DNA of 64,000 nt from Tubulanus polymorphus (taxonomy: Eukaryota; Animalia; Nemertea): contig NC_134032.1 in NCBI RefSeq assembly GCF_964204645.1, forward strand, positions 6,932,275-6,996,274, read 5' to 3'. Below the pieces are notes generated by a model. The model saw nothing but the letters and a program-made list of their open reading frames with translations, made no database searches and was not told the DNA's origin. The translations under genes were made by a program, and so were the position numbers. Positions 32,781-63,775 of the stretch are shown here, one piece after another. Within the stretch, counting starts at the first letter, position 1; each line of letters opens with the position of its first letter.

Positions 32781-34355
32781 TTTATTAGCTTTTGAATAAT
32801 TAGGCCAATTAATAACGTAATAAAGACTTATGCTTTCGCCTATTTTGAAGTCGATTAATCTGATATAGTACGGAAGCGATAAAGGGCCTCGAGTTGTCGC
32901 GTTCAAACTCGACAAGTCGCCATATTTATGTCGATATATCGCGATATATCGCGTCAAGTCCACATGAATATGTCTACAATCGTGACGTTTTCACAACAAA
33001 TTTCGCTTTTTTGCTCATTTTCCACGGGACAAGCCGTCATTTGAAGACATGTCTAAATGTAAGATGAGGGCGCTAGTAATATGACGACTGAGTTTCAAGT
33101 CGTCATGAATATGTCGACTTGTCGCGAGAAAAATGGTCGAGAAAACGAAATATGTCGTCAAAACGTCACAATATATCGACATATTCATGTCGACTTGACG
33201 CAATATATCGCGGTATGTCGACATAAATATGGCGACTTGTCGAGTTGGAACGCGACATCTCGAGGCCCCTTATCGCTTCTTTAGCTTTTGAATAATTAGG
33301 CCAATTAATAACGTAATAAAGACTTATGCTTTCGCCTATTTTGAAGTCGATTAATCTGATATAGTACGGAAGTGATAAAGGGCCTCGAGTTGTCGCGTTC
33401 AAACTCGACAAGTCGCCATATTTATGTCGATATATCGCGATATGTCGCATCAAGTCAACATAAATATGTTGACATATCGTGCTGTTTGACGACTTGAAAC
33501 TCAGTCGTCATATCACTGGCGTCCTCATCTTTCAGCAACGCCAGTCACATGGAGTCGCACGTGTTCTACTTTCTGCGACGCGACACGACTGTCACAACCA
33601 ACCGACGCGCTCTTGCGACTGGCAGAAACTATTTGCACACAATCGTATTGCAACCGACTTGCACCGAAACTTGCGGTGCAACGCAAGGATCGCCTCGTGT
33701 CACAAGACCAACTTACGTCTGGATTTAAGTTACTGCGGAGCACCAGAAATATTTTTTTTTTCGTTCAAAAGACCTTTCGCTTGAAAATTCTTTCGTCGGA
33801 ACAAAATTTATTTCGTTCGAACCAATAATATTCTATACGATTGAACCAATTTGAAAAAATCGTAAGAACAAAGTTGAACAAACTTTTTTTTGTCCAAACG
33901 AAAGGTTTTTCGTTCGAACAATCGTTCAATTGAACAGAATCTTTTTTAATTTGAACAGAATTTTCTTGTCAGAACATTAAGTTTTTCGTTCGAACAAGTA
34001 TATTGAAAAAAGTTTTTTCTCCGAACCGAAAGTATGAACTATTTCGTTCAATCGAACAGAATTGTTTTCATTCAAACATTCGTTTGAAAAAATTGTTTTC
34101 GCTCGACCAAATTTTTTTGCCGGGACTAAAAATTTTTCATTTCAACTATAACATAGCTTTTTATTTGAACACATTTTTTGTCAGAATGAAGAAAATTTTT
34201 GGTTCAAGCAAAAAGCGTATTGTTCGATCAAACAGAATTAGTTTCATTCGAACAAGATTTTCTTGTTGGAACATTAAGTTTTTTGGTCGAACAGCGTGTT
34301 AAGGTCGATTTGGAAATTTACTCGGTCTGGTATATGTTGGATTACTGTGTATGTT

Positions 34356-34474
34356 AGTAATTAGAAGATGGCGTTTTCATACCAGAGGACGAGAGGACGA
34401 GACACCACTCATCACCACAAGTAATTTTTGTTTTCCTACTCATCACCACAAGTAATTTTTTTTCCTTATAAATG
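34356..34474 (+). repeat. Left terminal inverted repeat
   Basis: Outer 74 bp identical to the reverse complement of 48103-48176; similarity continues to the pPolB ATG; two copies of ACTCATCACCACAAGTAATTTTT. Confidence 0.95.
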
Positions 34475-36915
34475 GGGGAGAATGAACACCAACCAGAAAA
34501 CAATAATGTCAATAAAAATCAATATTATTGTCAATATTGTAAAAAATACATCGATACATCTAATAAAACACGACATGAAAAAACTGCAAATCATATAAAA
34601 AATGTAATAGATTTTGAAACTCCAGAAAATTCCAATGAAAGAAAAGAACGATTAGAAAATATGAATGTGAATGAAATAAAATGTGAAGTTTGTGATGAAT
34701 TTATAACAAAAAGGAATTATAATAGACATCTCGAAACAGAAAAACACCATCAAAATTTGAGAAATAATGTTTTAGGAATAGATTATTTTGATGATAAACC
34801 TCAACAAGTAAAAGAATCAACTTCAAAAACTAAATCCATTTCAAATAAACCTTACATGGAAAATGTTAGAAATTATATTGATTCACTAGAAATAAAAGAT
34901 ACAATTGAAATCTTAGAAACATTACATAGTAACGTTGGTCCTGCAGCTATTATATTTAGATTTTTTAAAGGTACAACAATAGAAGATTATAGTAAATTTA
35001 ATGAAATAATAGAAAAAATACTAGATTTGATAACAGATGTTGAATATCCAAAAATTAGTATCTCTGGGAAAGTAAGTTTTTTAAAGTCAGAAGAAAAAAT
35101 GAATTATAATATTCAAACACACTCTGAAGAAATAATTTCAAAAACACAAATAAAAGAGAAGTTAGAAAAAATATTAAATGAATTTAAACGTCATATTGAA
35201 GAAAGATATTTTGAGGGTTCTGGCTTAACATTGAATGAAATTATATATTTAGATTTAAATGTTTATAATACAAAAAGGAATAAAACATCAAAAAGTAATA
35301 AAATGTTTAAAAATGATTCAAACTTTACAACAGAAAAGGATATGAAAGCATCAAGTTATATCAAATTACCGTTTACAACAAAAGCAGTAATAAATATTCA
35401 AAATGAAGATAATAAATGTTTTCTATGGTCAATTATTAGTTGTTTACACCAAACAGAAGATATGACGCATAGTTTTAGAATAACAAATTACCGGAAATAT
35501 GAAACATTATATAAAATTGATCAATATCCAGTAACTATAAAAATGATTCCTAAAATAGAAAAAATTAATAATTTAAAAATAAATGTATTCGAATTAATGC
35601 AATTACCAAAGACAAAAGGTGAAAATATTAAAGATTATACATTGGAAGCTTTATATTTAACAGAATATTATGATGACGAAAATGCTATAGATTTGTTATA
35701 TTATAAAAAAGATGAAAATGAACATTATATGTGGTTAAAACAAATTGATTTATTCTTTAGAACAGAAAGTGATTTTAACAACCATAAAATTTATCTATGT
35801 AGAAAATGTTTATCTAAATTTAGAACTGAGAATGCGTTACTAAAACATAAAGAATTATGTGATATTAAAGATTTTTGTAAATTAATAATGCCAGCAGAAA
35901 AAGATTATAAATTGAAATTTACTAATCATAAATTTAAAAATATTGTTCCATTTGTAATTTATGGGGATTTTGAATCATGGATGTTATGAAATCATCAGCA
36001 GTTTATAGAATACTTGTAAATAATCCTAAAGATTTTGCTATAGAATATAATGATGAATTCTATATTCATGCAATAGTGAAAAGTAATACTTCAACTAAAG
36101 AAAAAATAGTACCAGATTATATATTAAATTCAGAATATAATCTTAGAAAATGGTTCTTCATTGGGTTCTACGCAGCCGATGGTACTAAAAAATTTATAAA
36201 GAATAAAACGATAACCTTTGCACAGAAAGGAAAATGTGCAATAAGTGGGTTAAATGTGTTATGCAGTTCATTAGGCTTCAATATGAATATTGGATTGATT
36301 AAATCTAAACCAAATTGCTTTAATTTAAGGCATGTAGAAAAAGATTTAACTGAAGAAGTTAAAGATTTATTTGAAATATATAACCCAACTGACTATGTTT
36401 ATGATTTATCAACAGATGATGGAACATTCAATTCTGGGTTCCCATTAATCCAAAAAAATACTGACGCCTACATACTAAAAATCAAGACAAATGACATAAC
36501 AAAAGACTTAAAAACATTAAAACATTATTTTGATTTTAGCAATTATCCTAAAGATCATGAACTATTTAGCAATGATAATAAAAAGATTCCTGGTAAGTTT
36601 AAAGATGAATTAGGAGGTGATGAAATGATTGAATTTGTTGGGATAAGAAGTAAAATGTATAGTTACAGAACAAAAGATCATGAAGCTAAAAAGTTAAAAG
36701 GAATAACAAAACATGTGGTTGATAAACATATAGAATTTCAAGATTATATAAAGTGTTTATATAAATCAATTGTAATGAAACACAAGATGAATTGTTTAAG
36801 ATCAGAAGATCATGAGATGTACATTAATGAAGTTGAAAAAACTAGTTTAAATCCATTTGATGATAAAAGGCATATTTCAGATGATGGTATAAAAACATTA
36901 CCTTATGGTTATTAA
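34472..36915 (+). pseudogene. Protein-primed DNA polymerase B (pPolB) with a large internal deletion
   Basis: N part: two C2H2-type Zn fingers, EGSG, NEDNKCFLWSI...HY (OTU-like protease module), Exo I YGDFES. C part: TDAYIL (motif C half), GKFKDE, RSKMY, KLKGI, LNPFDDKR, TLPYGY. Most of the exonuclease and motifs A and B are missing; junction at ~35975. Confidence 0.92.
35974..36459 (+). mobile_element. C-terminal half of an intein with a LAGLIDADG homing endonuclease, inserted in pPolB motif C
   Basis: FFIGFYAADG (36154-36183), block F YVYDLST, terminal LIQKN (Asn codon 36457-36459) followed by +1 Thr-Asp. Confidence 0.85.
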
Positions 36916-38209
36916 AATGGATCTATATCATCAAACTCGAAATCACTATTGGCTTCTTCATTTTCATTTAATTGTTCAGGTTCTTCTTCCATTCCATTTT
37001 TCTCATTTAAATAAAGTTCTATCTTGTTCCACATTTCATCTCGCTCTCTTTGTTTCTTTTTGTTTGTTAATTCATCAAATGGAATTATAATATCTAGGTT
37101 TAAATAATTTACAATCTTATTTAAAAAGAATTCATAATTTATTGAATCTGTTATTCTATTTTCCAAATAATACATAAATATTTGTTTAAATATTTTTTTT
37201 ATATTTTCCATATCTTCTTCTGTTAATTTAGGTTTTTCATAATAATCGTTAGATAATAAATATAAATACATTTTCTTTTGTTTTGTGTTAAATGTTGGTG
37301 GAATAATTGTTTTTATAATATCTTTTTTAGTTATTTCACCATTTTTATTTTCTATTATTTTCATTTTTTCAAGCCATTGCATATATTCTGGTGTATGATC
37401 TTCTATAGAAAATATTTTAAAAATTTCATCTAGATAATTTAATTTTGGTTCTATGAGAAAATCTCTAGTTTTTTCTTCACCCCATAAATTCTTTTGCCAT
37501 CCACATTCAACACAAAATAACACAGTACCTTCTTGCCTTAAGGTCGCATAACTACATTGTGGGCATTTTTGTTTATAATTTCTTGGTAATAGATCTTCAT
37601 TAAGCTCTTGGTATTTTCTTACGTTTTCTTTATGTTTTATTGTTCTATTATGTAGATTTGAATTACTTGTTGTAATAATCAATTTACAATATTTACAATA
37701 ATATGTTTTTCTTGTTAATTCATTATATTGTTTTTCTAACTTTTCAACTGTTTCTTTATTATCTGGTAACGTTTTCTCATATTTTATTTTTTCTAATAAA
37801 TTATTTTTTCTTTCATTGAATTCAGTTTCAAATTTATTAGAAATTTTATCTATATGTGCTTTACGAAATTGATGATTCTCCCAATCTTCTATATTTTCAG
37901 GGCTATATTTTACTTGACAAGGCTCACAGAATGATCTTTTATATTATCCTTATCATAGAATAAGAAAGGTCTTTTCCAAATAACTTCAGGTTCAACTTCA
38001 GCAGAATTACTATCAACATTAGCCGTTGCGCCATTAATTCTACACTTCTCTGAATGTTTTTTAACATAATTTCTTGAGAATAATTTATTACATTTTGGAC
38101 AGTTTATTTTAGGGGGTTTATAATTTTCATCATGTTTTTTCATATGTCGAGCCATATTACTTTTTCTTAGAAGTTCACCACAAATTTCGCATGCTATCTT
38201 CTCATCCAT
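36912..38209 (-). pseudogene. Multi-Zn-finger protein with a C-terminal poxvirus VLTF3 (A2)-like domain; one 1-nt frameshift at ~37944
   Basis: ORFs 37910-38209 and 36912-37682 join because the second frame is open up to 37943; four C2H2-type fingers, then Zn ribbon CPQC-x13-CVEC, PKLNYLDEIF, IKKIFKQIFMYYLEN...SINYEFFLNKI, EMWNKI. Confidence 0.75.
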
Positions 38210-38277
38210 TTATTAAGGAAAAATTTTATTAAAATTAATTTTTAGTGATGAGCGGTAATTTTTTTATGTTATAAATA

Positions 38278-39030
38278 ATGGTAGAATTAAAAGAATACAG
38301 AATATTTGTTGATTCTAGAAAACTTACAAATTATAAATCTCATAATTTACTAGTACAATTAGATAGAGAATTCAAGAATTGTGTAGATTTAAAATTAGTT
38401 AATATAAGTTTATGTAATTCTTTTTATAATATATCGGATAAAAGTCTAGAACATTTAATTTTTTCAATCTTTTACAAAAAAAGGAATAAATGGTTTTTTA
38501 TATACTTAAAACCAGGATTATATCATTTAGATACATTAACACAAGAAATTAATAGAAAAGCTCGAGCTAAATTAGGAAGTGATTCCGGATTTAGTATTAG
38601 AATTTTAAAAAGTGCTAGTTCTAATAAAATAAAGATTAGGTTAGCTAATGACGAACAATTTAAATTTACAATAGCTAAACTATTAGGAATTGCACCAGAT
38701 ACCGTTACAGCATACGCAGAAGGTAACTCAAACTCAAATATAATACCTTTTACACACTTTTATATTTATTGCAATTTAATCGATCCTACAAAAACATTTG
38801 AAGCAACTAAAGATACAATTTGTAATTCTGGTTTATTAAATATTTTACCATTAAAAAATGTCAAACAATTTGGAACTCAAATAAATTATAATTTAACTGA
38901 ATGTGATTTCAAACCTTGTATTCCACATTTCAATAATTCTAAATTAGAAATAAGAAATCATAATGGTTATTTAATTGATTTGAATAACTTTCCTGTAATT
39001 TATGAATTAGTTATAAGATGTAAAGAGTAA
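38278..39030 (+). CDS. Minor capsid (penton, single jelly-roll) protein
   Basis: IFVDSR N-terminus, LKPGLY, FYIYCNLI, LLNILP, LEIRNHNGYLIDLNNFPVIYELVIR, typical of Polinton minor capsid proteins. Confidence 0.8.
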   Translation: MVELKEYRIFVDSRKLTNYKSHNLLVQLDREFKNCVDLKLVNISLCNSFYNISDKSLEHLIFSIFYKKRNKWFFIYLKPGLYHLDTLTQEINRKARAKLGSDSGFSIRILKSASSNKIKIRLANDEQFKFTIAKLLGIAPDTVTAYAEGNSNSNIIPFTHFYIYCNLIDPTKTFEATKDTICNSGLLNILPLKNVKQFGTQINYNLTECDFKPCIPHFNNSKLEIRNHNGYLIDLNNFPVIYELVIRCKE

Positions 39031-39046
39031 TTTTTCACCTATATAA

Positions 39047-39386
39047 ATGAATATAACTGTTGGACCGAGTATATGTTTTGGATTTGATTTTAAACATGGT
39101 AAAGAAATGAGAATTAAACTAAATGACGTAATTACTGATATAAAAAGTAAATCATTTAACAATGTGTCAATGATTGATAAAGAAAAGTATAATATAGAAA
39201 AAGTAATTGATTTAATTAAATCACCTTTTGGAATATTATGAATTAAATGAAGATGGAATTATTGATGATATCAAAAACATATTAACCAAAATATATGATA
39301 ATCATAAAACTAGTAATGAAATAAATGTTGAATTAATCATAAATAAGTTAACTAAATATTTTGAAGATAGTAATTTTTTTGATTAA
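39047..39386 (+). pseudogene. Hypothetical protein, probable frameshift at ~39230
   Basis: ORF 39047-39241 continues in another frame (EYYELNEDGIIDD...) to TAA at 39384-39386; ATAAATG start. Confidence 0.55.
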
Positions 39387-39389
39387 TAA

Positions 39390-39611
39390 ATGAGTGATAA
39401 TAAGTGGATAATAACTGGATTATATAATGGCGCATTACTATCAGTTGGAACTGTTGGTTATTCAATGGTATTAAAAAAAGTATTCAAAATGGGAAGTGTT
39501 AATGTTGATAGATTTGATATAAATGATATTCTAAAATTAACATTAGCAGTTACTTTATCGAATTTAACTATTGATTATTTGGAAAAACAAAAATATATTC
39601 CTCCCATATAA
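39390..39611 (+). CDS. Small hydrophobic (membrane) protein
   Basis: 73 aa, two hydrophobic helices, ATAAATG start. Confidence 0.7.
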   Translation: MSDNKWIITGLYNGALLSVGTVGYSMVLKKVFKMGSVNVDRFDINDILKLTLAVTLSNLTIDYLEKQKYIPPI

Positions 39612-39635
39612 ATACATAATTATTTTACTAAATAA

Positions 39636-40058
39636 ATGGCTTCTGCAATTATAACTATTATAGGATCAGCAATTGTTAACGCTTTAGCATTTACTGGTGG
39701 TGGTTATTTATTTAAACATATTGATAAAAATAGTTCATTAGGAGAACAAAGAAGACATAACTTAGCATTAGAGAAATACAATAAAGCTGCAGAAGAATAT
39801 AGAGAAAAGAGACAAAACTATATGGATTACATCAATAAAGAATTATATGATCAGAAGATTTCACACAGAGATTTTCAATCAGTTGATGATGCAATGAGTT
39901 TATATAACGCAGTAACAAATAAAGAAAAATTACATCTATACAAACCTAAATTATCAGATTATTATACCCCGAGTAAAGAACAACAGAAATATGAAATAAT
40001 ATGGATTTTAGGTGGAACTGTTATTGTTATATTTGTTGCTTATAAGTTTACTAATTAG
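39636..40058 (+). CDS. Membrane protein (N-terminal Gly/Ala hydrophobic helix, coiled coil, C-terminal TM)
   Basis: MASAIITIIGSAIVNALAFTGGG...IIWILGGTVIVIFVAYKF. Confidence 0.75.
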   Translation: MASAIITIIGSAIVNALAFTGGGYLFKHIDKNSSLGEQRRHNLALEKYNKAAEEYREKRQNYMDYINKELYDQKISHRDFQSVDDAMSLYNAVTNKEKLHLYKPKLSDYYTPSKEQQKYEIIWILGGTVIVIFVAYKFTN

Positions 40059-40077
40059 TAATTTTTATTCTAAATAA

Positions 40078-40512
40078 ATGGAAGATAAAGTTGATAGTAT
40101 TGATATTATTCCTCATGATATAAATAAAACTAAATTAAAAACATATTTAGAAAAACAAATATTAGAATTTGAAAGTGACTTAAAGATAAAAAAGAAAAAA
40201 TATTTAAAAAGTAAAATTATATATTATTTGATTATAAGTAGTTCGGTTACAATTAGTTCTGTAATAACATTTCTAGCAATATTCAGCCCATTAACACCTT
40301 TAGCTATATCAATTGGTGTGTTAGGATTAAGTTCAAGTGTTTTAACTGGTATAAGTTCAAAATTAAATATAAAAAGTAATAAAGAAAAAATCAAAACTAA
40401 TATAAAAGAAATTAATAAATTAAAGAATACACTAGATTATATAATAAGTTTAAATGGTCATATAACAGTTGAAGAACAAGATGAATTATTAAAAGAATTA
40501 ATAAATTATTAA
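40078..40512 (+). CDS. Two-TM coiled-coil protein
   Basis: Hydrophobic hairpin IIYYLII...AIFSPLTPLAISIGVLGL. Confidence 0.7.
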   Translation: MEDKVDSIDIIPHDINKTKLKTYLEKQILEFESDLKIKKKKYLKSKIIYYLIISSSVTISSVITFLAIFSPLTPLAISIGVLGLSSSVLTGISSKLNIKSNKEKIKTNIKEINKLKNTLDYIISLNGHITVEEQDELLKELINY

Positions 40513-40528
40513 TTTTTTAATTATATAA

Positions 40529-41917
40529 ATGGTAGATAGGTTTCCAAAAGCTTTCCGATATAATAAATCAATTAAATATAATATTCCAGCAATAGATTTT
40601 AATAAAGATATTACATATAGAAATGAAGTTTTAGATTCATTAACTAATTTAGAAATTTATGTTACTGAAACTAATAATTTTAATGCAAAGATGGAAAATA
40701 TATTTCATATATATTTAATTAATTTTAAAAAATTGAAAGATGAAAAACAATGGTTATTAAAATCTAATATGAAGTATTGGCAGAACCAATTAAATTTTGC
40801 TTTTTATTGTGCAACAACAGGATGTGGAATTAGTTGGAATGATCATTTGAATAATTCTAAATATAAATTAATTCAAAGTTTATTTAGATTTCATACATAC
40901 TTTCAAATAAGAATAATATTAAATGAATTAGAGTGCGCTTTACCAGGATCTAGGTATTTCAAAGAATTAGATAATAATATTAATTTATCAAAGTTTTATA
41001 AAATTTGCAATGAATTTAATATAGATATAAATAATTCTGATTTTAGAACAAAAATTGGAACAATAAGATCACTTCCATGCCCTAGAAAGATTGCAGAATA
41101 TTGTGCACTTCCCATACCATCTAATAGCTTTTATAATATCTATAATAAAAAATTAGGTTATGGTAAAATAGAAACAAAAGATTTAGAAACATTAAATTTC
41201 AATAAATTACCAAAATTTTATGATAATTTAAAACAAGAAAACAATAATGGTTGGGTATATTTTATTTTAGAAAATAGTGAAGGTTTTACTAAATCAGGTA
41301 TAGAAAGAATAAATCAATCTATTGGAACTTATTTGATATGTATTCTAGGATCACAAGTTGAAACAAGATCACCGATAATTGGAAATTTGAATACATCATT
41401 TGATACACAAAAACAATTTAAAGTTTTATTTGAAGATTCAATTCATAATGATAAAAATAGATCGATTCCAGAAAACATTATAAGATATCAAAATTATTTA
41501 GATAAATCACATATTAGATTAAATTATTGTATAGGCCCTAATCTATTAATTATTTCTAATGATTTAGTATTAAAGATGGGAAATATAATTGGTTATAATA
41601 ATCTAATTAAAACTGCGACAATAAATAATTCATTTGGATTAAATGATATAAATAAAAAGATTATTACTGCTCCAAAATTAATGGAAGGTGAAAAAAATAA
41701 AAAACACATTCAATCAACTGAAACTAAAACTAAGAATATTAAATTGGATAATGATTTCAAAATAAAAGATTACAATACATCAGAAAATAATAGAACTGAT
41801 AAAATTCAACATGATATAATTAAACTAAATGATGATAATAAATCCCATGAAAATACTAAATTAGCTATAACTTGTATAGGAATTGTAATCGGAGAAATAT
41901 TATATTTTAAATTTTAA
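40529..41917 (+). CDS. Hypothetical 462-aa protein with C-terminal hydrophobic anchor
   Basis: Long intact ORF; motif YWQNQLNFAFYCATTGCGISW; function not recognised. Confidence 0.75.
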   Translation: MVDRFPKAFRYNKSIKYNIPAIDFNKDITYRNEVLDSLTNLEIYVTETNNFNAKMENIFHIYLINFKKLKDEKQWLLKSNMKYWQNQLNFAFYCATTGCGISWNDHLNNSKYKLIQSLFRFHTYFQIRIILNELECALPGSRYFKELDNNINLSKFYKICNEFNIDINNSDFRTKIGTIRSLPCPRKIAEYCALPIPSNSFYNIYNKKLGYGKIETKDLETLNFNKLPKFYDNLKQENNNGWVYFILENSEGFTKSGIERINQSIGTYLICILGSQVETRSPIIGNLNTSFDTQKQFKVLFEDSIHNDKNRSIPENIIRYQNYLDKSHIRLNYCIGPNLLIISNDLVLKMGNIIGYNNLIKTATINNSFGLNDINKKIITAPKLMEGEKNKKHIQSTETKTKNIKLDNDFKIKDYNTSENNRTDKIQHDIIKLNDDNKSHENTKLAITCIGIVIGEILYFKF

Positions 41918-41933
41918 TTTTTTTATTATATAA

Positions 41934-43373
41934 ATGGATGTAGAAGGTGTAGAAGATATTGGAATGGATCCTTTTGATGAACCTGGTATAACTGATGAAC
42001 AACCACCTGATTTTGATGAAACAAGTTTTAATGATGGTAATGAAACAGCATATAATTCTAATTTAACTACACCCCAATTTATTGACAAAGCACGTTCAAA
42101 GATAAGTATTGAAAATGAAGTACCAGAAATAACAGAAAAAGAATACAATTATAATGAAATTATTCATGATTTTAAACCAATGTTAAAAAAATCTGGTTTC
42201 AATATATCAAATAAAGGTATGGATCATTTAGTAGAAGATTTGAAATATTTAAATGGTGAATATTATTGGAAATTGAAAGGTGACTATTATTTTAAGATTT
42301 CAAATCTTAAAAGTAGTGATAAAATAATAACACAATCAACTTTTAATTTATTAGAACAATCTAGAATTAAGAAAATCAATAATGATGTTATAACTGATGT
42401 TACAGAAAAAGAAAGATCTGATAATTTAAAAGAATTTAAACAAAGAAATGCTAAATTTTTTAAGATAATTAATGAAAATTTAGAAACAGAAACAACTTCT
42501 GAACAGAATATAATTTCCAAAACTAGTAAACTTAAATCAAATAAAGTTCCAATTGAAAAACTTTTACCGAATGGATTAATTGATGCAACAGATCAAGAAT
42601 TAGAAGATTTAGATATATTTTCTGATAAAGCAATTAGAGAAATTATTAGTATAAGACTTGCATCTAATAAAATTGCGCATGATAAAAGTATAAGAGATTT
42701 TAAAATTAGAACTTTAGAAAAAGAATTAACTGATAAAAATAAAGAAATAGAACAATTAAAGTCTGATTTAGATCATCAAGCAATTGATGAAATAGAATAT
42801 AGGCAAAAAGAGTTACGTTTAGAAAAAGAAAAAGATGATTTAGAATATAACATAGAATTACAAAAAGAAGAAATTAAATTATTGTTAAAATCATATGATT
42901 ATAATATTAATAGATTAAAAGTTATTTTTAAAGATTTGTTGATTAAACCAAATTCTGAAATATCATTAAAAGATAGAATAAAGTTATTATTTAAATTAGA
43001 AGGAATAACAATTCTTTCAATTCTAACAGCTGTAACTATGTTATTTACAACAATAGGTTTAGCTATATCAAATTCACTGAAATCTACTCCTACTCCAAAT
43101 AAACCAGATAAACCTCCAGGCAATAATTCTATACAAGATAAAGTTAAGGATGGTTTAAAGAAATTAGCAAAATATTTATGGGAACTATCTAAAAAATCTG
43201 CTGCAGCATTGCCAGGAGTTATTGCATCAATTGTTGGTTTTATATTGAAATCTGCAGGTAATATTCTTAACTTTGCTGCTGAACATATAATTTTATTTTT
43301 AATCACAGTTGTAAGTGCTATTATTTTCGGGTTAGTAAATATGATATCAAAAAGATATCAAGAAAAAAAATAA
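41934..43373 (+). CDS. Coiled-coil membrane protein (acidic N-terminus, multi-helix hydrophobic C-terminus)
   Basis: 479-aa intact ORF; heptad region then GITILSILTAV...LPGVIASIVGFIL...IILFLITVVSAIIFGL. Confidence 0.75.
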   Translation: MDVEGVEDIGMDPFDEPGITDEQPPDFDETSFNDGNETAYNSNLTTPQFIDKARSKISIENEVPEITEKEYNYNEIIHDFKPMLKKSGFNISNKGMDHLVEDLKYLNGEYYWKLKGDYYFKISNLKSSDKIITQSTFNLLEQSRIKKINNDVITDVTEKERSDNLKEFKQRNAKFFKIINENLETETTSEQNIISKTSKLKSNKVPIEKLLPNGLIDATDQELEDLDIFSDKAIREIISIRLASNKIAHDKSIRDFKIRTLEKELTDKNKEIEQLKSDLDHQAIDEIEYRQKELRLEKEKDDLEYNIELQKEEIKLLLKSYDYNINRLKVIFKDLLIKPNSEISLKDRIKLLFKLEGITILSILTAVTMLFTTIGLAISNSLKSTPTPNKPDKPPGNNSIQDKVKDGLKKLAKYLWELSKKSAAALPGVIASIVGFILKSAGNILNFAAEHIILFLITVVSAIIFGLVNMISKRYQEKK

Positions 43374-43407
43374 TAAAAAATAAATAATTAATTTTTTTGT
43401 TTAATAA

Positions 43408-44655
43408 ATGAGTGGGAGTTATAGAAGTCCTTCAAAGATTTCTAGAATATCTAATGCTATTAAAGCAGAAAGATCACATCATATAATTACTCATAACCCT
43501 TCAAATATTAATCCCGATGAAACTTTATATGTTAGAATCCCTCGATTAACACAAAATACTTTTTATGTTCCAAATAGTATTTATTTATCAGCTGATATAA
43601 AAGTAACTGGCCATGATAACAATTATGTTGTTGATAATGTTGGAAGATATTTGATTAAAAAATTAACTATAAAGATTGGTCCGGAAACAGTTTTCTCATT
43701 AGATGATTATAATTTATTTATGTATTATAAAGATTTATGGTTAACTAAAGAAAATAGAAATAATATGATATTTCAAGGCATCCAATCGGAAAACCATAAT
43801 AAATTAAGATCTGAAGCCAATAATGCAGTAGTAACTCGTGCCACAGATAATTTGATTAAAAAGATTTATGGAAGCAAATATAAAATTCCATTAGACTTTG
43901 AATTGATAAATAATAATGCACCTTTATATAAATACGCAATTCAAGAAGATATTATATTTGAGATAACATTTGCTCCTGTAAATGAAATTGTATTATCTAG
44001 CGTTGTTAAAGATATGGGTTATAAATTATCGAATATATGTTTAGAATATAACACAGTAACTAATGAAAATATTGCTAGCACAATTCAAACTCAATACAAT
44101 CAAGGATCTTCATTATTATATGATTATATTGATAAATTTAAAACTGTAACTATTAATGCAAATGATGAAATAATTAATGAGAATATTAACTTTCCTAGAA
44201 GATCTATTAAAGGTATATTAATATTTTTTACTATTGCAACATATTCTAATGGCGCAATAAATGTTGATAATTATTATAATCCTGAAATAACAAAAGTAGA
44301 AATAACTATCGAAGGAATAGCAAATAAAATATTTTGCCAAGGAATGAGAATGATAAACCAATGGCCAGAAATTAGAAAACATTTTATGAATGAAAAAGTA
44401 AAATCATTTGAAAATTGTAACATTAATCAAATTGATTATTATACCGGTAATAAATATGCATTATGGTTAGATTTTAGAACAACAGAGGATAATTCATTAC
44501 ATGGTTCTGGGAAAAAACTACAAAATACAAAAGATGGAATACAATTATTCATGAAAAAGAAAAAAGGAAGCTTAAATTTTAAAATGCATATTTATATTAT
44601 ATCTGACGCACAATTAAATATTGTAAATTCTCAATTAGATAGTATTCAATATTAG
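43408..44655 (+). CDS. Major capsid protein (double jelly-roll)
   Basis: 415 aa, beta-rich; NPSNINPDETLYVRIP, KYKIPLDF, IIFEITFA, NINFPRRSIKGILIFF, YALWLDFRT; size and position fit an MCP. Confidence 0.8.
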   Translation: MSGSYRSPSKISRISNAIKAERSHHIITHNPSNINPDETLYVRIPRLTQNTFYVPNSIYLSADIKVTGHDNNYVVDNVGRYLIKKLTIKIGPETVFSLDDYNLFMYYKDLWLTKENRNNMIFQGIQSENHNKLRSEANNAVVTRATDNLIKKIYGSKYKIPLDFELINNNAPLYKYAIQEDIIFEITFAPVNEIVLSSVVKDMGYKLSNICLEYNTVTNENIASTIQTQYNQGSSLLYDYIDKFKTVTINANDEIINENINFPRRSIKGILIFFTIATYSNGAINVDNYYNPEITKVEITIEGIANKIFCQGMRMINQWPEIRKHFMNEKVKSFENCNINQIDYYTGNKYALWLDFRTTEDNSLHGSGKKLQNTKDGIQLFMKKKKGSLNFKMHIYIISDAQLNIVNSQLDSIQY

Positions 44656-44685
44656 AAATATAAAGTTAAAATTAAGGATATATAA

Positions 44686-45813
44686 ATGAGTGGTAAAAAA
44701 ACTCCTAATACTAAAGAACAATATTTAAGAAATTTATATTACAACCCTGAGAGTTCGGTTGCTTATTCTTCTACTAAAAATATATGGCGTAAAGTAAAAC
44801 AAGATAAATTAGATAAGATAATCCCACAAAATTTAGTTAAATATAAAGATATAAATGAATTTATGTTAGAACAACCAACGTATACAACACATAAAAAAAT
44901 TGTTAGAAAATATAAAACTCGTAAAACTATGGTAAGTTATGTAGATCAACAGTGGCAAGGAGATTTAATTGATATGAAAAATGTTAAGAAAGATAATGAT
45001 GATTATTGGTGGTTATTGAATATAATTGATATTTTTAGTCGTTATGTATGGAGTTTCCCACTTTATAGAAAAGATGCTGTACAAACATCAAATGTTTTAA
45101 GAAAATTTCTTTCAGGTGGTAAACTAAAACCAGAAAAAATTCAATTTGATGATGGAAAAGAATTTGATAATTCATTAGTTCATGGACTTTTAGATTTTCA
45201 TAATATTAAATATTTTTCGACAAAATCGGATAAAAAAGCAGCAGTTGTTGAACGATTTAATAGAACATTGAGAACAAGAATGTCAAAATATTTCACAGCA
45301 AATAATACTTATAAATGGATTGATGTTTTACCAAAATTTATAGAAGGATATAATAATTCTTATCATTCTTCTATTGGAATGAAACCTATTGATGCTAGAA
45401 AACCTGAAAATGCTGAAATTGTTTGGAATAATTTATATGGAGCATTTCTTGTTGATGATTTTGGTGAACCTAAATTTAAAGTTGGTCAAAATGTTAGAAT
45501 TTCTAAGTATAAAAAGATATTTGACAAAGGATACGATCGAAATTTTACTAGAGAAATATACAAAATAAAAAAGGTAATAACAACAAAACCATATGTCTAT
45601 AAATTAGAAGATTTAGATGGTGAAGAAGTTGATGGCTACTTTTACGAAGAAGAATTAAGTTTAACTACTGAAAATCTAGAACAAGAATATAAAATTGAAA
45701 AAGTACTAAAAACAAAAACTGTTAAAAGAAAAAAATATTCTTTAGTGAAATGGGTTGGATGGCCAGATAAATTCAATGAATGGATATTATCAAGTAAAAT
45801 TAAAAATATATAA
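44686..45813 (+). CDS. Retroviral-like (rve) integrase with C-terminal chromodomain
   Basis: WQGDLIDM, IDIFSRY, QFDDGKEF, VERFNRT (DDE); YKIEKVL...VKWVGWPDKFNEWI. Confidence 0.95.
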   Translation: MSGKKTPNTKEQYLRNLYYNPESSVAYSSTKNIWRKVKQDKLDKIIPQNLVKYKDINEFMLEQPTYTTHKKIVRKYKTRKTMVSYVDQQWQGDLIDMKNVKKDNDDYWWLLNIIDIFSRYVWSFPLYRKDAVQTSNVLRKFLSGGKLKPEKIQFDDGKEFDNSLVHGLLDFHNIKYFSTKSDKKAAVVERFNRTLRTRMSKYFTANNTYKWIDVLPKFIEGYNNSYHSSIGMKPIDARKPENAEIVWNNLYGAFLVDDFGEPKFKVGQNVRISKYKKIFDKGYDRNFTREIYKIKKVITTKPYVYKLEDLDGEEVDGYFYEEELSLTTENLEQEYKIEKVLKTKTVKRKKYSLVKWVGWPDKFNEWILSSKIKNI

Positions 45814-46418
45814 ATGAATAAGGAATTATTTATATTTGAGCCTCATAATATGTTAATTTCTGGTGTAACAAATTGTGGAAAAACTTATTTTATATTAAAT
45901 TTATTAGAAACTGTTTATGAAAACTATTTTGATAATATAGTATTATTTTGTCCAACATATGAATTTAATCAAACTTATGATAGAAATATTACTAGAAATA
46001 ATAAATTTATTATATTAGATCCTAAAACAGTAAAAGAAAATTTAGATAATTGTATAAAAATAGCAATTGATATTTATAAAGGATCAAATACATTATTTAT
46101 CATAGATGATTGTGCAAATTTACATGATTCTAAAATTAGAGAAAGCGAGTTATGTTATTTAGCTTTCTCTGGAAGACATTTTGGGATAACAACTTGGGTT
46201 TTAAATCAAAAATATAATTCAATTGTTAAAGATTTTAGAGAAAACATTAGATTTCTAGTTTTATTCTACAATATAGAAAATCGATGAAAAATGCACTTGA
46301 GGAAAATGATATTATTCCATATGATTTACATAATGAATATATGGATAAGTTGAAAAATATTAAAAGATCAAAATTACTATTTAGATTACAACACCCATTT
46401 AAATATGAATTTATTTAA
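45814..46418 (+). pseudogene. A32/FtsK-like genome packaging ATPase; frameshift near 46270
   Basis: Walker A GVTNCGKT, Walker B FIIDD, SGRH, NQKY; an alternative frame (RKSMKNALEEND...) runs to TAA at 46416-46418. Confidence 0.9.
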
Positions 46419-46419
46419 A

Positions 46420-46681
46420 TTCAACTAGCTTGTTAATCTAATTGAATTCTAGTTGAATTCTAGTTATTGGTAGTTGTAACAAAAATCAAATAGATTTAAC
46501 AATATTTTAACTAGCTTGTTAATCTAGTTTAATTCTAGTTATATTCTAGTTGAATTCTAGTTGTTAGTAGTTGAAACAAAAATCAACTAGATTTAACAAG
46601 AAATAAACAAAAAACAACAATATTTCAACTAGCTTGTTAATCAATTTGAATTCTAGTTACATTCTAGTTAAATTCTAGTTG
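46420..46681. repeat. Internal non-coding iteron-like repeat block
   Basis: AACTAGCTTGTTAATC three times (46423, 46509, 46627), each followed by 11-bp-spaced ATTCTAGTT subrepeats. Confidence 0.8.
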
Positions 46682-46714
46682 CAACATCACACAATTAATT
46701 TTTTTGTTATATAA

Positions 46715-47319
46715 ATGGGAGGTGAAAAGAAAATAAAATCTAAAAATGGTGATGTTCCAATTGAAAAAACTTTAGATGATTTAGGAATAACAGAAACAAA
46801 ATTAACTCCAGATGATGGTGCTTTAAATATTGTTACAACAAATAATAATTATGAATATTATCTTTATTGTAAACATCAATTAGAAATATTAATAGCATCT
46901 GGAAAATGTAAAAATTTTATCGGTAAAAATTTAACTTATAATGAATTAGACACAATGAAATCAGATGAAATTATTAGATTATTTAAGATTTATGAAGCCG
47001 CGAGAACAGCTAAAATCAATGACGCGATATCAGAAAATGTAGTAAAAGGTTATAGTAAATTATGTAATTATATACTACCAATTGAAGATGAAAATAGATT
47101 ATATTCCGAATTAAAAAATGATTATTTAGTTATGACTGAATTAAATAAGTGGATTGGATATTTATCATTCAATTAGGTGGATTTATGACATTATTATCAA
47201 CCGGGGTTATAACATTTTCAAATATTGAAAGTAAAAATATTTCTATAATAAATGAGCGAAGTGAAAGAAGTGAAGGAATTAACTGTGAAGAAAAAACCGA
47301 GAACTCAGAAACAAATTGA
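46715..47319 (+). pseudogene. Conserved hypothetical protein (homologue of 62776-63378); 1-nt deletion at ~47170
   Basis: Shares IEKTLDDLGI, YEYYLYCKH, LKNDYLVMTEL; restoring TTT CAA TTA GGT gives ~201 aa, matching the 200-aa homologue. Confidence 0.85.
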
Positions 47320-47623
47320 ATGGTCTCGACAATTAGGAATTAAATCACAAGAATATAAAAAAGCTGTAAAAGAAAAAATAAGTAATAAAAATGTTAATAA
47401 AAATGGTGAAAATATTGTTATTTCTACTCCTTCTGATAGTAGAATATTTGATAAATATCTATATTTTACAGTTGGATTTGTAATTGTATTCATTTTGATT
47501 GGGTGTAATTGGTATAAGAAATCAAATAAAATTCATGATAGTAATAATTCTGAAACAACTGCTATCAAAAATGAAAATACTTCTGAAATTCCAAAATTGA
47601 TAAAAATATTTTTTTTAAATTAA
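47252..47623 (+). CDS. Basic N-terminus / single-TM protein (homologue of 63371-63769)
   Basis: KKKPRTQKQIEWSRQLG vs KKKARSEKQIKWARELG; central TM. Confidence 0.8.
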   Translation: MSEVKEVKELTVKKKPRTQKQIEWSRQLGIKSQEYKKAVKEKISNKNVNKNGENIVISTPSDSRIFDKYLYFTVGFVIVFILIGCNWYKKSNKIHDSNNSETTAIKNENTSEIPKLIKIFFLN

Positions 47624-47626
47624 TTG

Positions 47627-47691
47627 AATATCTCACTACTTTTGTCTATCTATGTGGAGCAATTAAATTGTCCAGATAAGTCATTTCGGAT
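47627..47691. ncRNA. Conserved structured non-coding element (copy 1)
   Basis: Near-identical to the reverse complement of 62461-62529 except in the hairpin region, which shows a compensatory change. Confidence 0.55.
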
Positions 47692-47733
47692 TCTAGATAT
47701 TCATTATTTCTATTAATTTATTTTTTTTAAAAT

Positions 47734-48060
47734 TTAATCAACAATTTCTAAATCATGATGACCGTCTTCATTTTTCCCATGATATATTATTTTAAATCCT
47801 ACTAAATCTTTCAATTCCTCCGTACTCAATGAAACCCATTTATCGGGTAAAAACACTTTAAATTCTCGCGATGTACTAACATTACAGTAGCTTAAATTAG
47901 CTAATACTTTCTCTCCATATTTAGTTTTTATCTTTTCTAATTTCAATATTTTATGTTCAATTTCTTTTGTAACATCAACTAACTTTTTTATTTCAAATTG
48001 TTTTTTTGCTGGTTTTATTCTGTTATTTATTGTTGCTAAGAATGCTTTTCTATCTCCCAT
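47734..48060 (-). CDS. Small protein starting inside the right TIR, possibly an OB-fold ssDNA-binding protein
   Basis: 108 aa; KTKYGEKVL...KVFLP; ATAAATG start; function is inference. Confidence 0.65.
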   Translation of the reverse strand: MGDRKAFLATINNRIKPAKKQFEIKKLVDVTKEIEHKILKLEKIKTKYGEKVLANLSYCNVSTSREFKVFLPDKWVSLSTEELKDLVGFKIIYHGKNEDGHHDLEIVD

Positions 48061-48176
48061 TTATTAGGAAAAAAAATTACTTGTGGTGATGAGTGTTAGG
48101 AAAAAAATTACTTGTGGTGATGAGTGGTGTCTCGTCCTCTCGTCCTCTGGTATGAAAACGCCATCTTCTAATTACT
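48058..48176 (-). repeat. Right terminal inverted repeat
   Basis: Reverse complement of 34356-34474. Confidence 0.95.
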
Positions 48177-49509
48177 TATGTTATTTGTCAGGACATTAAA
48201 CAGAAGACAACTTAGGATAGACCTTGCGTGACTCCACTAGTCCGACTTATTCCAAGATGAGGCGTTCCGTTGATTTCGGTTACAAGTTTCCGTTCAGAGA
48301 TAACTGCTGAGCCATTTGGGCGACTTATCATTGATACTGTTTCCTTAATAGCCTGTTTAGTAATGGCTGATGTTGTGCCTTATCAAATGCTTCGTCGAAA
48401 TCCACCGTTGAACAGGATTCTAAGACTGTGCAGAAAACCCGTTATCGCTGCTTTGCAGCTATATTTATTATTATTTTCTTCCACACTATTTTTACCAAAA
48501 GAACATAGGCTTTGTTACATTACCGCTGTTTCATATACAATCCATTTAATATCGTTCAGCTCACTGAGATCTACAAATAGCCCGCGTGTTTTTTCACGAA
48601 TCATCGTTACAAAAGCGCTGTCGGGCCGTAAACATCGAAAATTTAACCCCATTTAATGGGGCGACATGTTTTTCGAGTCGTCATCCCGAAATCAACCCGT
48701 AGGCCGACTGTCACTTCGATTATCAATTCAAGTATAAATGAACTAATTTATTGCCGCAGACTTCACATTCAGTCGCGGTCTTCAAACAGTGATTTTAACA
48801 ATAGCCCATTTTCCTCATCAAATCATATTACCGATACACTGGAAATTTACTACTTTAGATTTTAAAAGCACTGTCGAGCCGTAAACATCGACGAATCGAC
48901 GTGTGTTACTACATCGTCGTTCCGGGGATCAGCTGCGAGTTTCTCCTCACCATGAGAATCAAATCGAGTACAAATTAATTTATAACTACCAGTGATTTGG
49001 CTGCGGGCGTCAAGCAGTTAGTTTAGCAATACCTATTTTTCTTTACCAAATTAACCGTGTATTTACTAAGATAAATCATAAGTGTAACGGGGAGTCGTAG
49101 GCCTAAACTAAACAAGAGATATAACGGAGAAAAGCTGTTATGTCGACGAGGTATCAAAATAAAGAAATATATTACTTTATTCGGCCGCGGGCTTCAACCT
49201 CTATATCAATACCATCAATACTCTGTATTTCCTACAGTACATACCGATCATTGTCAAATCCACAAGGTATTTACTAAATACAAGTATACAACACACTCCT
49301 ATCCGTAGGCTGGACTCACACTTGACATTCGGAGTAAGCGTTCGCTGCGGAGGAAAGGAGATCGTTCGCTGTGTCGCTTGAAGTGTTTATCGAGTTTTAC
49401 GCGACCTTAAGGCTTAAGTATGGTGGCTGATACGATAAAAAACACGAATATGCAAATGAGGGCGACATTACGACAAAACGACAAAACTAAAATAACGCGA
49501 GAAAACAAT

Positions 49510-60278: not shown

Positions 60279-60358
60279 CTTAAAATATTCATATATATGA
60301 ATAACATTTAAATCATTGAACTTCTAAAATCAATTTTAATAAAAAATATAGTATTAAA

Positions 60359-60685
60359 ATGGAAGCAAATAAGTACTACTGCCCAACATGTAATATCGAT
60401 ATAGATAAATCCCAAAAAGCAAGACACAATAAAACTAGAACACATTTAGAGAATAAATTGAAACTAGAATATTTACAGTTATATTCAGAACAGTTAACAA
60501 AGGGAAAGAAATTTATTGAATTATAGAATAATGATCCAAATAATGAACAATACGTTGAGGAATTTGATATCAAGGAATCGAAACAACTTATCAAAAGCAG
60601 CGAGGAATGAAAAAGGATGACGTTGGTCGAAGAAATGGAAGAGGATTCTAAAATGTTAACCAATTTAGTAAAAAAATACGTATAA
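60359..60685 (+). pseudogene. C2H2 Zn-finger protein with two in-frame stops
   Basis: YYCPTCNIDIDKSQKARHNKTRTH, similar to the first finger of element-1 pPolB. Confidence 0.65.
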
Positions 60686-60688
60686 TAA

Positions 60689-61339
60689 ATGGAACCAGAA
60701 CAACCACAAATTATCAATATTACAAATAACACTGGCGTTATAAACATATACTACAAGAAGTGTTCTAAATGTGAATTAGATAAATCATTAACAGAATTTA
60801 GTAAGCGTAAGATTAGCAAAGATGGTTTTCAATATTGCTGTAAAACTTGTTTTAAACTATACACCAAACAATACCGAGAAGATAATATAGAACATTATAA
60901 TTATTATATGGCAGAATATATGAGAGAAAGATATCAAACAGATCTTAATTTTAGATTGAAACAATGTTTACGGTCTAGATTAACACAATTATTCAATAAA
61001 GAAACACATTCAGAAACATTATCTAATTTATTGGGTTGTTCAGATGAATTTCTCATATCATGGATAATATATCAATTCGATGATAAAATGAATATAGATA
61101 ATTATGAGGAATACTTTCATATTGATCATGTGTTGCCGATTTCTAAATTTAACATGAATGATGAATACAATAAAAAACTTATTTGGGGTTGGAGAAATTT
61201 AAGGCCTCTTGAAAAGAAAGAAAACATAATTAAATCTAATAAACTAGATATACAGTTATATTTAGATCAACTGGATAAAGCAAAGACATTTGTTGAATTA
61301 TGGAATTCAACACATAATGAAAAATACGTTGAATGTTAA
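60689..61339 (+). CDS. HNH-family endonuclease (giant-virus type) with N-terminal Zn ribbon
   Basis: KKCSKC...KDG...CKTC; FHIDHVLPIS...WRNLRPL...NIIKSNK. Confidence 0.8.
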   Translation: MEPEQPQIINITNNTGVINIYYKKCSKCELDKSLTEFSKRKISKDGFQYCCKTCFKLYTKQYREDNIEHYNYYMAEYMRERYQTDLNFRLKQCLRSRLTQLFNKETHSETLSNLLGCSDEFLISWIIYQFDDKMNIDNYEEYFHIDHVLPISKFNMNDEYNKKLIWGWRNLRPLEKKENIIKSNKLDIQLYLDQLDKAKTFVELWNSTHNEKYVEC

Positions 61340-61733
61340 ACGCTTAGAAAACCGGTTACTCTCGATCTATGTCAAACCGCCTATATTTAATTGTATTAGG
61401 TTGTTTACAAAAACATCTGCGCCGTATTTCATATTCAGTTGAATGGGGCGCACCTCATTTGAATATTGATCGAACGTGCTATTTCAGTTGAAAAGGATTA
61501 ATCAATTATATTACAAAAGAAGGAACATCTGTTGCACCAGATGGTGTTAAGCTAGTGAATAACTACCAGTTATAAACGCGCAGCACATAAGCATAGGAAC
61601 GTATTGGATATTCTCTCTCAAAACACAGTTTACAGTTCTAAATCTAAATGTAAGTAAATATATTATGAAGTAGGGAAACCTTTAAACATATTTAAGTACA
61701 GTAATTCATTTTCACGATATCTTTTAGATTAAA

Positions 61734-62006
61734 ATGGAACACAAAGATCGACCAGAAATTCTAAGCCAACCAACGTATGAGGAACCAGAAACGATAGATA
61801 GTGAAACTCAGGAATCAATAGAAATGGAGGATGAAACTCTCGTAATTGACGAACAAACTTCACAAACATTACAAGAACATTTGGACTATCATCAAGAAAT
61901 GGTGAAAATTCTGAGTGATGTAATACATAATAAACAATTACCGCGCGAACTACAATTACCAAAATTACCAGCAACGCGACTTAAATTGCTGTTGGGACTC
62001 AAATAA
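61734..62006 (+). CDS. Hypothetical acidic protein
   Basis: 90-aa ORF with TTAAAATG start, inside element 2. Confidence 0.4.
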   Translation: MEHKDRPEILSQPTYEEPETIDSETQESIEMEDETLVIDEQTSQTLQEHLDYHQEMVKILSDVIHNKQLPRELQLPKLPATRLKLLLGLK

Positions 62007-62460: not shown

Positions 62461-62529
62461 ATCCGAAATGACTTATCTGGACAGTTATAATTACTGCTCC
62501 TAATAGATAGACAATAGTAGTGAGATATT
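62461..62529. ncRNA. Conserved structured non-coding element (copy 2)
   Basis: Reverse-complement match to 47627-47691. Confidence 0.55.
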
Positions 62530-62775
62530 AAATCCTAATTTAAATAAAATATAATAAAAAAACAATAACTTCAACTAGCTAGTCAATTCTATTATATTTT
62601 CAATATTTTCTTTTGGTAATTCTAATTGACATTAGATTGAATAGATTTTGAATAGATTTGAATAGAAATTCTTTAACTTTAACTAACCTAGTCAATTTAG
62701 TATTAACCTAAAGAGATACTAGTATCATTTGAAGAATATTTATAATATTTTTTTTGCTTTTTTCCTCTAATATAA

Positions 62776-63769: not shown

Positions 63770-63775
63770 AATAAG

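Follow-up and report, generated by a model that had tools for sequence, protein, structure and literature searches.

VLTF3-bearing polintoviruses integrated in stony coral genomes have been reported (PMC11131425, citing Krupovic and Koonin 2016), and VLTF3 was also found in the animal polintons of PMC8502044 and 10.64898/2026.06.19.733378, the latter including elements from Octocorallia, Hydrozoa and Bivalvia outside the Maverick groups. Polinton-like viruses (PLVs) occur in the occlusion bodies of entomopoxviruses (PMC11296320), and promoter motifs of the helper virus are carried by virophages and by Gezel-14T, reactivation being limited to those EMALEs with CroV-like late promoters (10.1101/2022.07.28.501842; 10.1101/2025.10.09.676808). 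Additional related literature comprises 10.1101/2024.03.23.586382, PMC3671162, 10.64898/2026.10.13.758929, PMC12220804, 10.64898/2026.10.09.758095 and 10.1101/2025.04.19.649669. For the transcription of animal Polintons, the usual assumption is that host RNA polymerase II (Pol II) is used. In this study, a Polinton-like provirus was analysed in a 64,000-nt stretch of the Tubulanus polymorphus genome (contig NC_134032.1, positions 6,932,275 to 6,996,274; hereafter the window), with a TAAATG motif at its gene starts as the central subject. The original prediction for this DNA had described a virophage-like Polinton dependent on a poxvirus. Of the precedents it named, helper promoters in virophages are documented in the papers above, as are Polinton-like viruses proposed to parasitise insect poxviruses, and the novelty that it saw in an integrated VLTF3-bearing family of a non-insect invertebrate is contradicted by the coral elements.

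The provirus spans positions 34356-48176 of the window (13,821 bp) with exact ends. That it is a bounded Polinton was confirmed by repeats, empty-site reads, Pfam matches and protein fold. The terminal inverted repeats (TIRs) are 124 nt long with 94% identity, the termini read AG...CT, and TATGTT stands on either side as a 6-bp target-site duplication (TSD). The other Polinton hallmarks were also found, namely a DNA polymerase B with protein priming (pPolB, broken in this copy), an rve integrase, a double-jelly-roll (DJR) major capsid protein (MCP) and an A32 ATPase. As predicted, the element is very AT-rich, with a GC content of 23.6% against approximately 30-45% across most of the remaining window. 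The empty-site joint, in which the element and one TSD are skipped (34349->48177), was present in 2,392 raw DNA reads; these reads, like those used for depth, came from DNA run X6, which has the same species label (about 12% of the run). The flanks belong to a high-copy host repeat, and both empty alleles and other copies of that repeat may have contributed to the empty-site reads. Summed across the element, read depth came to about 120-1,000 in a total of 1.93 Gb of reads with a likeness of ≥88%, which implies at least 10 copies of the family for any genome larger than 100 Mb; the family is accordingly described only as multi-copy.

The claim that almost every gene starts with ATAAATG held for 14 of the 15 gene starts of the element, the fifteenth having TAAATA-ATG. 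On the + strand of the element, TAA precedes 20 of 302 other ATGs. Since TAA can never precede an internal ATG that is in frame, this comparison within the element has little force, and relatives were used instead. A metagenome scan yielded 199 MCP relatives, the best 80 of which served as family loci; the core genes of the family are those for the MCP, the ATPase and the 140-, 153-, 462- and 479-aa proteins. Of the 81 sequences, 66 entered an MCP tree (quick IQ-TREE run; 15 sequences with fewer than 250 aligned residues were dropped), in which the motif-bearing loci formed one clade of 15 rows (SH-aLRT 99). Motifs were counted at the first ATG of open reading frames (ORFs) of at least 100 aa. 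TAAATG was present at 62 of 73 starts in the clade and at 6 of 357 starts in the 64 loci outside it, 51 of which were in the tree and 13 of which were assigned by low MCP identity. Two loci that were not in the tree (L024 and L075), with TAAATG at 4 of 6 starts, were set aside.

AT-richness was ruled out as the cause of the motif by GC-matched counts: clade loci with at least 30% GC had it at 19 of 22 starts, against 1 of 59 in outside loci with less than 37% GC. The AT-rich outsiders had AAATG at 27 of these 59 starts, with T at -3 in one case of 27, whereas all 62 AAATG starts of the clade had T at -3. In eukaryotes, the Kozak context has a purine at -3 as its core. These comparisons support the motif as a trait of the clade and not an artefact of AT content or of Kozak context. 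On the MCP tree it is placed as one well-conserved event, not as 62 independent ones. An MCP with 55% identity, in the identity range of the clade, is filed as Bartonella in NCBI/UniRef (P0045), and likely represents host-derived contamination of the assembly concerned.

A role in translation was considered, in which the motif supplies an in-frame stop before the ATG for termination and re-initiation on read-through RNAs. In every case the TAA and the ATG share one reading frame, and the genes are mostly co-oriented and tightly packed. The TAA closes an upstream ORF in just 2 of 62 clade cases, however, and stop-start coupling was ruled out on this count; the motif also stands at the first genes inside both TIRs and at divergent genes, and the phased peaks described below, of A at -18 and of T at -12, would be left unexplained. 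We consider such a translation device improbable.

The upstream profile of 66 clade motifs showed A at -18 and -17 (82% and 71%), T at -13 and -12 (76% and 88%) and A at -4 (86%), so that the T peak falls on the 10th and 9th positions upstream of TAAAT. Vaccinia late promoters have TAAAT(G) over the start codon and a conserved T ten bases upstream (PMC11980589), vaccinia intermediate promoters have TAAA and an AT-rich stretch 15-19 nt upstream (PMC11980589; PMC5294985), and vaccinia transcription initiates inside the AAA of the motif (PMC5294985). The comparison supports a two-part layout of the clade motif like that of poxvirus post-replicative promoters, and the anti-Kozak T at -3 would agree with a start of transcription within the AAA, which PMC5294985 describes for vaccinia. 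The TIRs hold a duplicated 31-bp unit (34400-34465 and 48064-48126), of which the promoter-like motif's T-rich core is a part, and both terminal genes would therefore share one promoter design.

Transcription by host Pol II was weighed against this layout. The clade might consist of autonomous nuclear elements in which the motif is a TATA box, an initiator or a translation signal reached by convergence, or a relic of a helper-dependent past. Multi-copy presence in the host genome requires nuclear access, ATAAA resembles a TATA box, and hallmark genes were expressed in about half of 49 coral polintovirus elements, with no helper named in the accessible text (PMC11131425). Among clade ORFs, 18 of 68 have AATAAA no more than 40 nt from their end, compared with 7 of 317 outside, although these hexamers are largely the motif of the next gene; in coding strands of the clade it occurs 200 times against 203 expected, with similar values in outsiders, which is uninformative. 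A TATA box, as described in the accessible literature, belongs 25-30 nt upstream of the start site and not on the start codon, and the T at -3 is the opposite of what the AT-rich outsiders show, which have the expected AAAATG. Several intergenic gaps of 16-34 nt leave scant room for Pol II promoters, although the outsiders are equally compact (median 14 nt). Host Pol II is retained as a minority explanation.

A search of IMG/VR with a promoter-shaped pattern returned 53 loci, the majority of which had 0-2 such starts, likely by chance. The largest identifiable group consisted of six loci that were orthopoxvirus-like by gene order (L082 confirmed by Pfam), with the pattern at 4 of 6-7 starts each. 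Three Sputnik-type virophage loci (L084, L124, L126; G003) had ATAAATG at 4 of 5-6 starts, and the giant-virus helper of this virophage therefore likely uses it too. Loci from giant-virus bins had TAAATG at 7 of 13 (L118), 6 of 12 (L128), 4 of 7 (L097) and 3 of 8 starts (L094), each count including one start selected by the search. In unselected 20-kb stretches the counts were 8 of 20 for the first of these bins (G001; loci L118 and L136) and 6 of 18 for the second (G002; loci L128 and L137), with a T-rich zone at -15 to -11 in G001 and not clearly in G002; about 40 of 419 kb and 32 of 244 kb of these bins, respectively, were sampled. The bins carry PCNA, a cellular-type Rpb2 and Megaviricetes-type genes. 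The closest entries to the VLTF3 model of G001 (pLDDT 66) were those of Marseillevirus LCMAC101 (29%), of pithoviruses and of iridoviruses, whereas cowpox came at rank 32 (14%), and G001 is likely to belong to Pimascovirales on account of these neighbours. On these counts TAAATG is not exclusive to poxviruses. Its presence at 33-57% of sampled starts in non-pox giant-virus bins makes it a candidate late-promoter motif there, one that was not met in the literature covered, within the accessible portions of those papers. G001 also has an Rpb2 frame of 2,174 aa, which suggests more inteins.

These results bear on the original proposal of a specifically poxvirus-like helper (Chitovirales) with the element bringing its own late factor A2, which is a sub-case of dependence on a large DNA virus. 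A TAAATG that overlaps the start codon, combined with a T peak some 10 nt upstream, is the textbook pox late promoter, the orthopoxvirus loci are the largest identifiable group from the promoter pattern, and PLVs occur in entomopoxvirus occlusion bodies (PMC11296320). Against it stand the TAAATG counts of the two non-pox bins and of the Sputnik-type virophage, the absence of a pox-like polymerase among the carriers of the related inteins (see below), and VLTF3-like ORFs in loci where the motif is missing. No pox RNA polymerase subunit or pox-specific family was found in the window ORFs, in 61 representatives of the 135 unmatched family ORFs or in 20 further clade ORFs. The predicted poxvirus late promoter thus stands as to its TAAAT(G) overlap and upstream T and is not diagnostic of poxviruses alone; likewise, transcription by a large-DNA-virus polymerase is supported, and the requirement for a poxvirus is not. 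A poxvirus-like helper is a tentative option.

The pPolB of the element contains the C-terminal half of an intein, in a frame whose last residue is Asn and which is followed at once by the Thr of polymerase motif C. Used as a query, this part matched five proteins among 260 candidates: the intact pPolB of a relative (P0160, 63%), two RNA-primed, Pol-delta-like PolBs (P0161, on a 361,911-bp contig, 39%; P0164, 31%) and two topoisomerase II proteins (33-34%). No pox polymerase was near the top PDB matches of the two RNA-primed PolBs. A homologous intein occupies this site in the PolB of giant-virus bin G001 as well (32% over 396 aa). The intein is complete in P0160, with a Ser start, an Asn end and Thr at +1, a PF14890 match (E 4.5e-7, 30.2 bits; cut-off 35.8), and LAGLIDADG_3 over its cut-off, the polymerase itself bearing PF03175; the penultimate His is replaced by Ser in P0160 and by Lys in the window. 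The pol-c site was empty in all nine other family pPolBs detected in the loci, including that of clade member L008. The read depth approximately doubles at the intein-extein boundary, which fits an intein present in part of the host's copies.

G001 was rejected as the intein donor, since a quick tree of 10 rows (weak, with three rows shortened) paired the element intein with P0160, nearest to the P0164 group. Homing requires both DNAs in one compartment, and to our knowledge poxviruses have no inteins. The intein is, as far as sequence kinship can tell, separate evidence of DNA exchange between the animal provirus and giant-virus polymerase genes. Homing-endonuclease insertions in pPolBs have been suggested to stem from intein invasions (PMC11161782).

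We consider it probable that the clade is helper-dependent and virophage-like, and that it is transcribed by the cytoplasmic RNA polymerase of a nucleocytovirus. The promoter layout favours a poxvirus-like helper, and the intein and G001 favour a Megaviricetes helper, for example of Pimascovirales type; the identity of the helper is therefore split evenly, and the Megaviricetes option is as provisional as its poxvirus-like counterpart. From the anatomy, the motif statistics and the intein kinship, which are observed, we infer every step of the following cycle. Intact copies would be largely silent in the chromosome. Upon infection by the helper, transcription would be initiated by the helper's late machinery within the AAA of TAAAT. 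The element's own pPolB would then copy it inside the viral factory or close by, its own MCP and ATPase would serve for packaging, and its rve integrase would bring about re-integration. The intein, the deoxynucleoside kinase and the VLTF3-like cargo may be relics of sharing the compartment of the helper.

The polymerase might also be supplied by a sister cytoplasmic linear element. Yeast pGKL2 is a cytoplasmic linear plasmid with its own RNA polymerase, and the mRNAs of cytoplasmic pPolB plasmids start at a pox-like initiator. Such pPolB-bearing plasmids are relatives of polintons (PMC11161782). No RNA polymerase gene was found in the element or in the scanned clade ORFs, although the clade loci are mostly fragments and absence is unproven. 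A sister element is the least probable of the sources considered, slightly below the translation device.

Several points weigh against helper dependence. No helper, transcript or start site was observed; the single RNA run compared contained next to no reads on the element, which is uninformative. The expression of coral polintovirus genes mentioned above was reported with no helper named. Because of the single origin of the motif and of near-duplicate loci, Fisher P values overstate the evidence. The use of the motif at 85% of clade starts exceeds the 33-67% of the pox and giant-virus samples, and a simple translation signal could give it. Inteins move far, and one intein does not prove a present-day helper. 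T-runs in the coding strand were depleted in the clade relative to codon shuffles (T5NT, 18 vs 51; T6, 15 vs 44), compared with 38 vs 42 for T5NT in outsiders (L002 and two near-duplicate outsiders were omitted here), and A5 runs were depleted too (634 vs 788 expected). This depletion is only suggestive and seems partly a general avoidance of homopolymers; TTTTTNT depletion was dropped as a pox-specific sign, as T6 and A5 are depleted alike and the orthopoxvirus and giant-virus controls were too small.

The VLTF3 assignment is also weak. Pox_VLTF3 matched at E ≤ 0.05 in none of the four close relatives tested, and an alignment of the VLTF3-like profile with giant-virus VLTF3 by hhalign had a probability of 50.7%. 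What remains of the predicted VLTF3/A2-like gene is the match of the window piece to Pox_VLTF3 (PF04947; E 1.9e-6, 28.1 bits, over the cut-off of 25). Atlas ranked VLTF3 clusters first for this piece (0.82), which is a lead only. An exhaustive search found three relatives of the protein, with 46% identity to P0165; P0165 and P0176 belong to an element of the type of clade member L005 (95-98% at the N-terminus). When the 343-aa frame was used in a word-indexed search, none of 2,538 candidates matched. The expected co-occurrence of VLTF3 and TAAATG failed across the family: VLTF3-like ORFs (19.9-24 bits, under the cut-off) are present in three loci outside the clade (L045, L046, L062), where TAAATG stands at 0 of 33 starts. 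The gene is likely a divergent, VLTF3-derived cargo that does not track the motif.

Beside its VLTF3-like gene, L005 carries an intact deoxynucleoside kinase (10340-10981, - strand; E 1.7e-31). A zinc-finger/HNH-like ORF with weak HNH matches recurs among the clade's members at varied positions (window 60689-61339; L001:5568-6083; L007, L008, L013 and L024). Some members outside the clade have a large SF1-type helicase ORF (AAA_30, AAA_19; L053:9967-13596 and L043:8794-11034, both on the - strand), possibly by a swap of the replication module.

The motif-bearing clade and its motif-free sister clades, which have the same core genes, provide a natural contrast, and the element of about 30 bp is directly testable. 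If helper dependence is true, virophage-like hyperparasitism would extend beyond protists and the free PLVs of insects to elements integrated in the animal germline, and the motif would act as a fingerprint from which still undiscovered large DNA viruses of these hosts, cytoplasmic in habit, could be predicted. In its boldest form, this would be a virophage-like lineage of the animal germline that left host Pol II for the late promoter of an undiscovered invertebrate virus, pox-like and cytoplasmic, took intein and cargo from the world of that virus, and was retained at high copy number as an antiviral defence that is inherited and triggered by infection; we regard this full version as unlikely.

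The copy in the window is, as read from its sequence, defective and cannot replicate itself. Its pPolB survives as two pieces that correspond to residues 1-423 and 1378-1689 of the intact 1,693-aa P0160, about 950 aa being gone, and three further genes are interrupted, those for the VLTF3-like protein, the ATPase and the 153-aa product. At the pPolB break, 149 reads continued from the 5' piece and 73 entered the 3' piece from other sequence, and other copies therefore differ there. At two of the breaks in the interrupted genes, the majority of family reads disagreed with the window copy, so that the lesions look copy-specific. The defective state, the intein fragment and the lack of a detectable cysteine-protease gene had been missed by the original prediction.

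The features of the element are listed in Table 1. Its 17 ORFs were scanned against Pfam and hits were graded against the curated cut-offs. The integrase matched rve (PF00665) at E 8e-9, over the cut-off, and has a chromodomain; the ATPase matched Pox_A32 at E 6e-13. The MCP model (pLDDT 88) is a double jelly roll that matched the PBCV-1 capsid (E 8e-17, TM 0.66). In a structure search of BFVD its top matches were capsids of nucleocytoplasmic large DNA virus type at 8-16% identity, and the first adintovirus entry was at rank 24. The penton gene that had been predicted corresponds to a candidate with a weak match, and the absence of introns is judged from ORF continuity alone. An NCBIfam scan of the element proteins gave SLATT matches only, all sub-threshold, and the C-terminal piece of pPolB had no match among PDB sequences.

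Table 1. Features of the provirus, its target-site duplications and the second element in the window
Feature	Position	Strand	Basis
Left target-site duplication, 6 bp	34350..34355	+	flank sequence and empty-site joint in reads
Left TIR, AG end; contains promoter-like motif and start codon of pPolB	34356..34479	+	
pPolB N-terminal piece, ends shortly after exonuclease I motif	34472..35989	+	33% to P0160 residues 1-423, E 1e-68
C-terminal half of LAGLIDADG intein, pol-c site	35974..36459	+	63% to P0160 intein
pPolB C-terminal extein	36460..36915	+	matches P0160
Zinc-finger and VLTF3-like gene, two frames (37910-38209, 36912-37943)	36912..38209	-	Pox_VLTF3, 28.1 bits
Candidate minor capsid (penton) protein; sole gene without direct TAAATG	38278..39030	+	weak: DUF5901 E 0.013; 43% homologue in L005
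64-aa ORF, TAAATG start	39047..39241	+	homologue in L005
73-aa hydrophobic ORF, family-conserved	39390..39611	+	ORF list, family loci
140-aa ORF, hydrophobic ends, family-conserved	39636..40058	+	ORF list, family loci
SLATT-like protein with two transmembrane segments	40078..40512	+	NCBIfam SLATT_4 E 3.8e-5, under cut-off
462-aa family-core protein	40529..41917	+	no Pfam match; 27-68% homologues in family loci
479-aa coiled-coil protein, hydrophobic C-terminus, family core	41934..43373	+	Pfam scan, family loci
415-aa double-jelly-roll MCP	43408..44655	+	structure model, fold matches
rve integrase with C-terminal chromodomain	44686..45813	+	Pfam
A32 packaging ATPase, interrupted, two frames	45814..46418	+	Pfam; intact 204-aa homologues in L001, L004, L005
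Non-coding stretch, 11-bp and 86-bp tandem repeats	46419..46680	.	repeat analysis
153-aa family-core ORF, truncated relative to 200-218-aa homologues	46715..47176	+	ORF list, family loci
123-aa ORF with hydrophobic segment	47252..47623	+	ORF list, family loci
108-aa ORF; start and promoter-like motif within right TIR	47734..48060	-	ORF list
Right TIR, CT end	48053..48176	-	
Right target-site duplication	48177..48182	+	
Part of a second, related element, with an HNH-like ORF, homologues of the 153-aa and 123-aa ORFs and the start of an integrase	60300..64000	+	leaves window at right edge

The related second element that had been predicted about 12 kb downstream was found, with 73% nucleotide identity to the first over 468 bp and 52% in the integrase; TAAATG is present at 3 of its 6 listed starts, and it begins near 60,300. 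Non-coding repeats stand just 5' of the 153/200-aa gene in both elements (46419-46680 and about 62580-62730), possibly as an origin or packaging signal. Between a retrotransposon gag fragment (59376-60014, + strand) and the second element there is a long AT-rich palindrome (60060-60270), which may be a terminal hairpin or a rearranged TIR. The first element is inserted within a high-copy host repeat and is flanked by host repeats (25900-33500 and 48400-55400), which include 31-bp, 154-bp and other tandem arrays and duplicated blocks of kilobase scale. The window also contains a piece of a piggyBac-type transposase (11736-12743, - strand), an intronless class A GPCR found by Pfam (21055-22008, + strand) and a BEL/Pao DUF1759 ORF (55853-56761, + strand). 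Together with the gag ORF, these neighbours identify the host as an animal.

The element is best filed, on its gene content, as an animal Polinton-like virus of an unplaced group, because the virophage MCP test failed and the Maverick protease is missing. Sputnik_MCP had no Pfam match in the element, whereas it matched virophage locus L084 at E 9e-92, and no cysteine capsid maturation protease of adenain/Ulp1 type was found by Pfam in the 17 element ORFs or in the 61 family-ORF representatives. Scans of IMG/VR for relatives of the MCP, the VLTF3 piece, P0161 and P0160 returned none. In the literature covered, which did not extend to supplements and most subscription literature, we found polintons reported neither with the TAAATG motif nor with a pol-c intein of Hint type.

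The entomopoxvirus PLVs (Barth et al. 2024, PMC11296320) are likewise small DJR viruses of animals and are proposed parasites of poxviruses. They have a cysteine protease, a tyrosine recombinase or no integrase in place of rve, and a location in occlusion bodies, whereas the element described here has an rve integrase and no detected protease and is multi-copy in its host genome. The accessible text of PMC11296320 makes no mention of promoter, TAAAT or VLTF3. Mavirus and the EMALEs, Gezel-14T and the Tetraselmis PLVs may be regarded as analogous, as integrated elements with a helper-type promoter motif before their genes. Their hosts are protists, whereas the present element has an animal host and an MCP that is not of Sputnik type. 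The coral and other animal Polintons outside the Maverick MCP groups share with it the TIRs, the 6-bp TSD, pPolB, rve, the A32 ATPase and the DJR MCP, and VLTF3 and SLATT cargo has been described in polinton-like elements (PMC11131425; 10.64898/2026.06.19.733378). The present clade differs from them in its strict TAAATG and in the pol-c intein, promoters being unmentioned in the accessible portions of those papers. The intein itself resembles the pol-c inteins of nucleocytovirus PolBs in its Ser start, Asn end, Thr at +1, LAGLIDADG domain and motif-C site (31-37% identity), but here it lies within the protein-primed PolB of an animal provirus.

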